NCBI GenBank assembly: GCA_050246755.1
Contig: JBFWVL010000001.1
Coordinates: forward strand, 1,849,266 to 1,913,265
Length of the DNA: 64,000 bases
Origin: Bacteriovoracia bacterium
GTDB lineage: Bacteria > Bdellovibrionota > UBA1018 > CAIPTA01
Reading direction: 5' to 3'
Notes under the pieces: generated by a model
What the model saw: only the letters and a program-made list of their open reading frames with translations
Databases searched by the model: none
What the model was told of the DNA's origin: nothing
Translations under genes and position numbers: made by a program
Shown here: one piece after another, positions 22,424-24,375 of the stretch
Numbering within the stretch: position 1 is the first letter of the stretch
Layout: each line of letters starts with the position of its first letter

Positions 22424-22870
22424 ATGAGATTTCTCATCCTAGCTTTAGCCTTGTTCACGAGCGTGGCTCGCGCGGAGATCGATATCGGCCAGGAAGTGCG
22501 CCAGCAATTCGATCGTATGCGGGCGGTGGTTTCTAAAATGAAGCCCGAGTTCGCAGTGGGCGGCTATCTCAACGGCAAAAGCTTCGGCGATCACGAAGTG
22601 CTCTGGCATCTCGAACCTACCGGCGATGCCGAGGTGATTCGCATCTACCGCGAAAAGAAAAACGGGCAAGCCTTCGATATCACCTTTCACCGCAATGATG
22701 CGATCGTGAGAGGGCGCACTGTGGTCCGCCGTTTCGTGGGCCCTTCTCCTACCGGCTGGCGCAACGATACGGTGGATGCCGATACAGGCGAGTACCTCGG
22801 CAGCCAAGGCCAGGAAGAGCCGTTGATGGATAAGCGAGATCGGGAAATTTTTAAGCGCTGGCTGGAGTGA
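22424..22870 (+). CDS. Exported hypothetical protein
   Basis: GGAGG RBS; signal peptide ending ARA; 148 aa. Confidence 0.75.
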   Translation: MRFLILALALFTSVARAEIDIGQEVRQQFDRMRAVVSKMKPEFAVGGYLNGKSFGDHEVLWHLEPTGDAEVIRIYREKKNGQAFDITFHRNDAIVRGRTVVRRFVGPSPTGWRNDTVDADTGEYLGSQGQEEPLMDKRDREIFKRWLE

Positions 22871-22882
22871 ATTTTCCCAAAT

Positions 22883-22912
22883 AAAAAAGCCGGCATCCCT
22901 GCCGGCTTTTTT
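22883..22912. terminator. Bidirectional terminator between convergent genes
   Basis: aaaaaagccggca-tccc-tgccggctttttt perfect inverted repeat. Confidence 0.85.
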
Positions 22913-22939
22913 GTGCGCTGCTTCTCCGCTGTAGAGTTT

Positions 22940-23061
22940 TTAGTTCGCCGGCCCCCACTTCGCCGCTTGAGCTCGGGCTCCTGCCCTCGCCTCTTGCGAG
23001 CGCTCGCTTCGCTGCGCGTCCCAATCGGCATTCCTGCCGATTGGTCGCAGTTTCCGAGAAA
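22940..23061 (-). repeat. Synonymously diverged duplicate of the tolB 3' end, interrupted by a 77-bp structured insert
   Basis: Minus strand CTC GGA AAC TGC GA[22968-23044]A GCG GCG AAG TGG GGG CCG GCG AAC TAA versus tolB TTC GGC AAC TGC GAA GCG GCG AAA TGG GGA CCG GCT AAT TAA. Confidence 0.9.
22968..23044 (-). mobile_element. Putative miniature multi-hairpin inserted element
   Basis: CCAATCGGCA-GGAA-TGCCGATTGG (10-bp perfect stem), GCGAAGC mini-hairpin, CTC-GCAA-GAG, GGGC-AGGA-GCCC; sits inside the duplicated GA^A codon. Confidence 0.55.
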
Positions 23062-24375
23062 TTAATTAGCCGGTCCCCATTTCGCCGCTTCGCAGTTGCC
23101 GAAGTCGGACGTGATCTGGCGGTGCACGGTATTGTCGATATTCGTGATGTAGAGGTTCTTCTTTCCCTTGCGGTTCGAGGAATACACGATGAAATAACCG
23201 TCCGGAGCAAAATCCGGATCCTCGTTATTGCCCATATTCTTGGTGAGGCGCTCGAGGCCGGTGCCGTCGGTATTCATGATGAAGATATCGAATTTGCCCG
23301 CGTCCCAGCCCGCGAAAGCGAGCTTATTCCCCTGGGGGCTCCAGCTCGGCGTGGCGTTGTAGAAGCCCGCGTAGGTGAGGCGTTGCACGTTGGCGCCGTT
23401 GGACTCCATCTTGTACACCATGGGGCGGCCGGAGCGGTCGGATACGAATGCGAGCCATTTGCCATCGGGGCTCCAGGAAGGATCCACGTCGAGGCCAAAG
23501 CTATTCGTGACCCGCTGGATTACCTTCGAGGCGGGATCCATCAAGAAGATCTCTGGGTTGCCGGGGAAGCTCATAGTGAGCGCGATCTGTTTTCCATTGG
23601 GAGAATAGGCCGCGCCGGAGTTGATGCCCGGCTTATTGGAGAGCATCTCGATCTTGCCGGTAGGCAGGCTATACATGAAGAGGTTGTGGTTGCGCACGTT
23701 TTTTCTGTTTTTGGTGATCGCGGTAAATACGATCTCTTTACCATCGGGGCGCCAGCCGGGGGCCATGGCGTGGGAGAAACGCGACGTTACCTTGATTGGG
23801 TTCTGGCCGTCGTAGTCCATCAGGTAGATTTCTTTTTTTCCGGTGCGGTCCGACACGAAGGCGATCTTCGAGGTGAAGGGGCCTTTTTTGCCGGTGAGGG
23901 CGAAGAGGATATCGTTGGAAACGGTATGCGCCATCTTCCGGATCGAATCGTTGCCGGCTTTGTAGCGCTTGCCGAGCAACTGCTTGCCGGTGGAAATTCC
24001 GTAGAGGTAGAGCTCGAGGCTCACGCCAGAGCTGTCTACGTTGCCGCGTGCCTTGATGAGGAACTCGGAGCCGATGGCGGACCAGTCGGTCATCTTGAAG
24101 GAGCCGAGGGTTACGCCGGCTTTGGTTGGGTCTTCCACGAAAGCGGAGGGGTTAAGGAAATCGAAGAGGCCGGAGAAGGCGAGGTCTTCCATCGTGATCT
24201 CGCGCACGGAGCGGAGCCGGCCTTCGCCGTCGTTCGGGGCCACGATCGTGGGAAAGGCCACGATGGATTTACGCGTGCGGGCATCGCCCACGGCGATCTT
24301 GAGCACGGGCTCGTCGGCGTAGGCCGTGAGGGTGGTTGCCAGGAAGGGTAAAAGCAGTAGGAATAAGATTTTCAT
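23062..24375 (-). CDS. tolB: Tol-Pal beta-propeller protein TolB
   Basis: Signal peptide, N-terminal domain (DLAFSGLF), PD40 repeats (PSWSPDG); follows tolQRA. Confidence 0.93.
   Translation of the reverse strand: MKILFLLLLPFLATTLTAYADEPVLKIAVGDARTRKSIVAFPTIVAPNDGEGRLRSVREITMEDLAFSGLFDFLNPSAFVEDPTKAGVTLGSFKMTDWSAIGSEFLIKARGNVDSSGVSLELYLYGISTGKQLLGKRYKAGNDSIRKMAHTVSNDILFALTGKKGPFTSKIAFVSDRTGKKEIYLMDYDGQNPIKVTSRFSHAMAPGWRPDGKEIVFTAITKNRKNVRNHNLFMYSLPTGKIEMLSNKPGINSGAAYSPNGKQIALTMSFPGNPEIFLMDPASKVIQRVTNSFGLDVDPSWSPDGKWLAFVSDRSGRPMVYKMESNGANVQRLTYAGFYNATPSWSPQGNKLAFAGWDAGKFDIFIMNTDGTGLERLTKNMGNNEDPDFAPDGYFIVYSSNRKGKKNLYITNIDNTVHRQITSDFGNCEAAKWGPAN

Follow-up and report, generated by a model that had tools for sequence, protein, structure and literature searches.

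We examined a 64,000-nt stretch of the genome of a Bacteriovoracia bacterium (contig JBFWVL010000001.1, positions 1,849,266 to 1,913,265; hereafter the window), in which the last 13 codons of tolB are duplicated downstream of the gene and the second copy is interrupted after TGCGA by a structured core of 77 nt. This core is a member of the family of tRNA-linked repeats (TLRs) of Escherichia coli, represented in Rfam as RtT (RF00391). The reading that we favor, at a probability of about 60%, is that the core was inserted at a T-loop-like GA^A site and the distal segment of the target was duplicated or replaced, leaving TolB intact. A protein-coding gene as the partner of a TLR seems to be new, as does a range of the family that extends far beyond the Enterobacterales; the TLR list and conservation data in Supplementary Figures 1-2 of PMC8144298 may be relevant to the range already known.

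The duplicated end of tolB

Read on the minus strand, tolB ends in TTC GGC AAC TGC GA^A GCG GCG AAA TGG GGA CCG GCT AAT TAA. The stop codon is followed by TTT, CTCGGAAACTGCGA, the 77-nt insert, AGCGGCGAAGTGGGGGCCGGCGAACTAA (to 22940), 27 nt and a terminator. The parts are given below in window positions, with the evidence for them in brackets; the covariance model R1 and the strain X3 are described further on.

23062..24375, minus strand: tolB, 437 aa, ending with the proximal, functional copy of the repeated end (Pfam TolB_N and PD40)
23090..23103, minus strand: left arm in tolB, TTC GGC AAC TGC GA, with the junction after GA
23062..23089, minus strand: proximal copy (X'), the last 9 codons and stop, read as TolB (sequence, repeat search, alignment)
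23045..23058, minus strand: second left arm, or left-arm mimic (a'), CTCGGAAACTGCGA, 12/14 positions as in the tolB left arm
22969..23044 (~77 nt), minus strand: TLR core, three hairpins (fold, R1 model, identity to the tRNA-Met copy, covariation)
22940..22968, minus strand: distal non-coding copy (X) of the tolB end, AGCGGCGAAGTGGGGGCCGGCGAACTAA (repeats, relatives, strain X3)
22883..22912: bidirectional intrinsic terminator, a 13-bp stem between A and T runs (inverted repeat; terminator-like Rfam fragments)

A repeat search paired 22940-22968 with 23062-23090 (29 nt, 86% identical, spacing 122) and 23045-23057 with 23090-23102 (13 nt, 92% identical, spacing 45). Local alignment of the 35 nt past the insert with the 320 nt before it gave 24/28 identities (z = 10.9, 300 shuffles), confirming the initial annotation, which had described a tolB end duplicated and split after TGCGA by 77 nt. 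That annotation also reported five synonymous differences between the copies. All five are present: four lie between the proximal and distal copies (9 codons and stop), every one at a third position and synonymous, and GGC/GGA in the left arm is the fifth. The copies differ as well at TTC/CTC and TTT/AAA, which had been omitted. The boundaries of the core are uncertain by 1-2 nt, because A or GA is common to core and target. The duplicated segment can also be read as 45 bp, GG.AACTGCGA ... TAA ... CTC, bounded by TC; it then comprises the last 13 codons, the stop and 6 nt, and the core sits after TGCGA in its distal copy. The CTCGGA of the left-arm mimic resembles the native sequence past the tolB stop in the closest relative (G003).

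The hairpins of the core are a long A/T-rich stem with a GGAA loop, a short C-rich stem, and GGGC-AGGA-GCCC (fold z = -3.5), and the repeat search found a perfect 10-bp hairpin within the insert (23021-23030/23035-23044). The terminator at 22883-22912 is the only one after tolB, which places the core inside the tolB 3' untranslated region (UTR).

The window comes from a metagenome-assembled genome, and the copies of the tolB end differ at synonymous sites only, as would be expected of alleles from two strains; a chimeric assembly, or a repeat arising by chance, had therefore to be considered. Single contigs bridge the structure in two other runs. The contig of run X2 (a second sample from the same study) matches 22700-23182 at every position, and that of run X3 (a different study and a ~95% identical strain) covers the entire stretch with identical architecture and 33 differences in 701 nt. 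Run X1 is identical to the window and was not counted, as it may be the source of the window DNA. Since the X2 and X3 contigs span the structure, it is no assembly chimera; given also the repeat score above and the recurrence of the architecture elsewhere, we attach a negligible probability to an artefact of either kind.

A core shared with the tRNA-linked repeats of E. coli

The covariance model R1 was built from seven cores with the tolB copy among the seed, so that the 97.8 bits of the tolB core are the score of a seed member. Across the E. coli K-12 chromosome R1 gave exactly 3 matches, at the ends of rrnA, rrnB and rrnD, which are the rrA, rrB and rrF elements. The rrnB match lies in the 3' region between the two terminators behind 5S rRNA (52.8 bits, E = 1.5e-14), and this unit ends in a copy of the last bases of 5S rRNA with the junction GGGA^A. 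At tyrT-tyrV of K-12 there are a single unit behind tyrT and, behind tyrV, three units of 178 bp, all with the canonical anatomy described below; R1 scored the tyrT units weakly (13-15 bits). Canonical tRNA-linked copies from other genomes matched RtT below threshold, at 28-32 bits against a gathering score of 45. The printed RtT consensus has the same order of motifs (GGAUGAGAAC, GGUUCGA, hairpins, CCCGAAGG, CGAG, AUCC...CCACCA), and it depicts a helix in which the inverted 5' strand pairs with the repeated end.

According to PMC8144298, which cites Rudd 1999 and Egan & Landy 1978, TLRs were first described in 1978, number 22 in ten K-12 loci, follow 5S rRNA as well as tRNAs, and have as their hallmark an identical copy, 18-19 bp long, of the 3' end of the preceding tRNA or rRNA; their function is given there as still unknown. 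On the evidence of R1 on K-12, the RtT matches of canonical copies and that article, the tolB unit does not represent a new kind of element.

The tolB unit and its E. coli counterparts share several properties. The three-hairpin core is found in both the tolB unit and rrB, with GGA in hairpin loops, and the unit terminates in a copy of the 3' end of the adjoining upstream gene (24/28 nt at tolB). The junction falls after GA and before A in tRNAs (GTTCGA^A), 5S rRNA (GGGA^A) and tolB (TGCGA^A). The tolB unit is placed between gene and terminator, and rrB between T1 and T2. They differ in that the tolB partner is protein-coding, its repeated end being coding sequence (28 nt, 24 identical), and in that the unit lacks an inverted 5' strand of the GGATGAGAAC type, which is present in E. 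coli tyrT. The host, known from a landfill-metagenome genome, is far from the Enterobacterales, and the unit lies outside any tRNA or rRNA operon, with tolB as the upstream gene. The tRNA list of the genome has no entry near tolB (contig positions 1,872,204-1,872,368), the nearest being at ~1,630,000.

The initial annotation had proposed testing whether the core recurs between target-derived flanks, and it does so in this genome and in many others. BLAST against this genome found one related core 70 nt behind tRNA-Met on contig C4 (C4:110796-110872, 81% identical to the tolB core) and two behind tRNA-Asn on C1. These tRNA-linked cores have ...GTTCGA (the first five bases of the T-loop) before them and, after them, the tRNA sequence once more, beginning at the T-loop and continuing past CCA; the tRNA gene proper is intact. 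The target-restoring pattern of the initial annotation holds, and the partner gene is kept whole. At C1:212962-213445, tRNA-Asn is followed by two identical 187-bp TLR units, each with a 64-nt copy of the tRNA end and a terminator. The same tRNA-Asn unit is found in the genome G007, where a ~10-kb segment lies between two repeated ends; its open reading frames (ORFs) are of a putative metal-efflux type, as judged solely by their lengths and initial residues. A further core, of weak score (29 bits), at C1:133294-133383, minus strand, lies 32 nt behind a co-oriented 284-codon ORF and has no duplicated flank.

Of the 127 genomes of the class, R1 detected the core in 43, the largest number of copies in one genome being 19. 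We read 36 copies in detail: 20 are preceded, at a distance of no more than 310 nt, by a tRNA (Pro, Met, Asn, Thr, Leu, Gln, Ala, Ser or Arg) that is intact and has the same orientation, the usual distance being 60-300 nt. In 15 of the 36, the 20 nt past the core have an upstream counterpart with no more than 3 mismatches (14 in a tRNA, one in tolB), and several of the remaining copies in the class have diverged or indel-bearing repeats. Where no tRNA is near, 11 of 27 copies follow a co-oriented ORF at a distance of 100 nt or less, and among 34 entries of this kind a duplicated flank was found at tolB and the loci L045 and L046 only. At L046 (G036:C6, ~1448-1620) the core is set between 24-nt duplicates (21/24 identical) with no tRNA or ORF end nearby, and the partner could be another RNA gene. 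The orthologous tRNA-Met of the genome G004 has no core, and in a search for an empty site at tRNA-Met the relatives matched the upstream flank only. The hairpins are conserved as structures: in an alignment fitted to the model, 93.6% of cells pair, compared with 65.8% in shuffles and 34-52% in slid controls, and 16 of 18 core pairs show compensatory change.

A canonical unit consists of seven parts. The gene up to GA is followed by a new copy of its end, which often includes a terminator, and then by an inverted, ~75-80% identical copy of the last ~29 nt of the tRNA, which reads ...GGATGAGAAC...; this strand is the complement of GTTC-GA-ATCC except that its two central bases are non-complementary. 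A tiny loop, a left-arm mimic ending in GTTCGA, the core and the old gene end complete the unit. The inverted strand was recognizable in 10/18 tRNA-linked units (z >= 2.7). Tandem arrays stand behind tRNA-Met and tRNA-Gln (L062, L065), in which both the units and their terminators have diverged from one another. Two minimal units lack the inverted strand, that of tolB and one at tRNA-Pro in the genome G032; the latter has a 103-nt duplicated flank with 5 mismatches, joined at a GTCGC microhomology, and its core is in the distal T-loop. At L076 (G114:C57, 9897-10043) a core lies inside the T-loop of an otherwise full-length initiator-type tRNA gene with no duplicate nearby, so plain insertion at the site does occur. 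Either the gene copy is dead or the locus hints that the core can be taken out of RNA; a reading of the core as an intron, which the locus raised, was rejected.

For a wider search, species in GTDB were scanned for the motif, a step from which we estimate that some tens of chance matches are to be expected, and at least 80 loci among the matches listed were passed to R1. At least 48 matches at E <= 0.001 were obtained, several loci having more than one. Among the matches listed are Gammaproteobacteria (Aliiglaciecola, Luteimonas, Steroidobacter, Woeseiaceae, Endozoicomonas), Bdellovibrionales, Oligoflexia and records labeled 'Deltaproteobacteria'; the Burkholderia entries of the motif scan were unmatched by R1. 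Of 31 copies inspected outside the class, again among the matches listed, 22 follow a tRNA and 15 have an upstream copy of the 18-20 nt past the core.

Origin of the tolB unit

No core was found at the tolB loci of 28 genome and 7 metagenome relatives, and none of the tolB ends read in 12 and 5 of these, respectively, is duplicated. In the relatives without the core the DNA downstream of tolB is non-syntenic, the nearest having ~84% nucleotide identity, with the exception of X3, which has the unit. The downstream neighbor of the unit, a 148-aa ORF, has no homologue adjoining tolB in the 8 relatives checked, so that no syntenic empty site at tolB can be aligned. At the tolB ends of relatives, GCG or GCC, AAC and an A-rich flank prevail. 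The distal copy therefore has the look of an ancestral state and the proximal copy, with the left-arm mimic, that of a derived one, as an imported end would predict.

The initial annotation took the inner arms to be foreign. Derived states do lie on the inner arms, and they amount to about 4 events (p roughly 0.06-0.12, by our own estimate). Other observations weaken the claim. In X3 the distal copy reads AAA and GGA as the proximal copy does; two of the five synonymous differences are therefore later changes of the non-coding copy, and those left are GCT/GCG, AAT/AAC, TTT/AAA and GGC/GGA. Both copies also share a lineage-specific Ala codon (EAAKW, where 12/12 relatives read have EAPKW or EAPRW), and any donor must therefore have been very close kin. 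Since X3 has the unit, we infer that the event predates the split from this ~95% identical strain.

According to the reading that we favor, the core would have entered at a GA^A site resembling the GTTCGA^A site of the tRNA T-loop, and its insertion would have been coupled to a short, microhomology-bounded duplication of the distal target segment, or would have survived only because of one. The order of events could also have been another, in which a unit already carrying a tolB end integrated.

A number of observations weigh against this reading. An Rfam search of window positions 22700-23300 at E <= 10 returned terminator-like fragments and no RtT match. Only TTT separates the tolB stop from the left-arm mimic, leaving out the inverted 5' strand. 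No recombinase linked to the core family was found among the loci examined. In the core-bearing genome G103 most copies are solitary, without tRNA or duplicated flank, and hence the core needs no repeated gene end; nor is G103 among the genomes with a match to Y1 transposases. Window positions 22959-23163, 205 nt in all, are identical to X3 where ~10 differences would be expected at the overall rate, and the block ends at the junction of core and distal copy; just past the distal copy (22920-22933), 7/14 positions differ. This identity may reflect recent exchange by homologous recombination, or selection, instead of old vertical descent. Before the X3 split the functional proximal copy had changed more (GCT, AAT, TTT) than the non-coding distal copy (none), a pattern more in keeping with an imported end than with drift following local duplication.

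The last of these points leads to the model of the initial annotation, in which a non-autonomous unit of ~122 bp (new tolB end, TTT, left-arm mimic and core) recombined site-specifically at TGCGA^A, giving tolB a foreign 3' end and pushing the native end downstream, the two copies being attL and attR. Rotation of such a unit by one arm yields exactly the order observed at tolB, and the distal copy and its flank have the states common in relatives, the proximal copy and left-arm mimic the rarer ones. Also in favor is that the block identical to X3 stops at the junction of core and distal copy. At the tRNA-Met of this genome, the spacer past the proximal copy contains a terminator with no counterpart past the distal copy, and the flank that follows the distal copy resembles the native flank in G004; in the arrays at L062 and L065 each unit has its own diverged tRNA end and terminator, as successive imports predict. 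In E. coli, a preprint reports raised coverage of tyrT-rttR in exonuclease-resistant DNA under stress (10.1101/2024.07.17.603846). We nonetheless judge such an integrative unit unlikely. The absence of a recombinase in the neighborhood and among the family members examined, and the Ala codon shared by both copies, speak against it, and with X3 considered only about four informative differences are left. The left-arm mimic lies 5' of the core, away from the crossover, and no standard attP is so built. Moreover, both arms are tailored to each target, and the unit would therefore have needed a tolB end before it met tolB.

The unit might instead be purely an RNA gene, a small RNA derived from a 3' UTR or co-transcribed with the upstream gene, in which the repeated end is selected for processing or stability and nothing moves. 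A role of this kind was proposed for the 5S-linked RrB, and PMC8144298 suggests that the repeat guides cleavage by RNase E. The strong covariation of the core would fit an RNA gene, as would its enrichment in GGA loops: at least one predicted hairpin loop contains GGA in 58/64 cores and at least two in 37/64, with a mean of 1.53, compared with 0.41 for shuffled sequences. All tRNA-linked copies have the core in the orientation of the upstream gene, 11/27 copies without a nearby tRNA follow a co-oriented ORF within 100 nt, and the inverted 5' strand can pair with the repeated end in the 10/18 tRNA-linked copies that have it. Against this, no processing rationale is known for copying the final codons of an mRNA, the end of the tolB unit lacks a 5' strand with which it could pair, and presence and absence vary among close relatives. 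The repeated end always matches the neighbor, be it one of nine tRNA species, 5S rRNA or tolB, an indication that it reflects the making of the unit and not a need of it. We regard an RNA gene without mobility as improbable.

The GGA loops retain an interest of their own under the reading of an inserted core. The core would be transcribed within the tolB 3' UTR up to the shared terminator, and a CsrA gene is present in this genome. Among the sequencing runs listed with this stretch, none is of RNA. RrA, RrB and RrF of E. coli are transcribed and processed, and they bind Hfq and CsrA in vitro (PMC8144298). By analogy, the GGA-loop hairpins of the tolB core may bind CsrA and Hfq, and a CsrA-binding 3'-UTR module is a reasonable guess.

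Neighboring genes and mobile elements compared

The tolB gene is the last of a tolQ-tolR-tolA-like-tolB run, whose three upstream ORFs match Pfam MotA_ExbB, ExbD and TonB_C. No pal follows tolB; the convergent 148-aa ORF, which uses the same terminator, is of no known family and has an apparent signal peptide, judged by eye. A 114-codon ORF beginning with ATG (window 22687-23031, minus strand) starts in the loop of the first core hairpin, has an Arg/Lys-rich beginning, crosses the terminator and is unlikely to be a gene; in E. coli, a small 'protamine-like' ORF, tpr, is annotated in the tyrT unit. A frameshift or read-through extension of TolB was ruled out as the role of the insert, which at 77 nt is out of frame and whose family is also found behind tRNAs.

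Pfam searches of the ORFs neighboring tolB found no recombinase, in agreement with the initial annotation. Elsewhere, a large serine recombinase is encoded between tRNA and core at L071, and at L070 a tyrosine recombinase-like ORF is similarly placed (no Pfam match; a C-terminal H..R..Y motif seen by eye). Both islands finish in their own degenerate copies of the tRNA end, and the large serine recombinase was rejected as a mobilizer because a right end belonging to the L071 island itself precedes the TLR. Two homologues of the L071 protein, 31-32% identical, are encoded in the genome of the window (C7:96820-98379 and C6:165651-167195), adjoining the tmRNA gene and tRNA-Arg(tct); no core was found beside them, and these loci are probably integrated islands. 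A link to the Y1 transposases (PF01797) was also rejected: they occur in 85/127 genomes and in none of the core-bearing G001, G004, G006, G032 and others. The differences between the copies (A/G, A/G, T/G, T/C, C/A) are not adenine-specific, which rejects a diversity-generating retroelement, and no reverse transcriptase was found among the ORFs checked near tolB.

Some integrative elements replace the 3' end of the gene they enter, among them islands in tRNA and tmRNA genes and prophage-type insertions into protein genes. Like these, the TLR unit leaves its target intact by means of a replacement end, with the old end as a downstream direct repeat, and its junction is in the T-loop, the classic place of crossover. 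Unlike them, it measures 120-300 bp and has no integrase, and its repeat is split by the core, with the left-arm mimic 5' of the core. Genuine islands are found at the same tRNAs (L070, L071, L073), each with a distinct right end of its own. The miniature elements of IS200/IS605 (PATEs) and REP/RAYT are likewise small, hairpin-rich and non-coding, are inserted after a short specific sequence, and resemble the dispersed, solitary copies in G103. They differ from the TLR unit in that they do not duplicate the end of a target; for the TLR unit there is no link to Y1, and no matching pair of end hairpins has been shown to be bound by a transposase. The word 'mobile' is absent from PMC8144298, and the version 3 text of PMC10542128 ('CoCoNuTs') has no whole-word RtT or tyrT.

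Together these comparisons widen the range of TLRs to 43/127 genomes of a distant class, several gammaproteobacterial orders and Bdellovibrionota-type records, and they define an anatomy that can be tested: the GA junction, the left-arm mimic, the inverted copy of the target with its central mismatch, and the hairpins with GGA loops. The rrnB T1-T2 region, which holds rrB, is widely reused in cloning vectors. According to PMC8144298, the family has no accepted function, and no origin is stated for it. A partner that encodes a protein separates two explanations, as a processing signal would be senseless for the last 13 codons of tolB and an insertion footprint sensible; this hints that the repeated gene end of the family comes from its mode of insertion.

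We tentatively entertain a broader possibility, that TLR/RtT units are widespread, tiny, protein-less insertion modules that enter the GA^A of T-loop-like sites in highly expressed genes and keep the target working through duplication or replacement of its distal segment. If so, the repeated end of a TLR would be the footprint of an insertion and not a signal for RNA processing, and the tolB unit would be the first case of a restored coding sequence. The inverted copy of the target, with its GA/GA mismatch at the junction, would then suggest a folded single-strand intermediate, as is known for integron attC sites and CTX phage. If TLR units really move, they would be among the smallest target-restoring elements.

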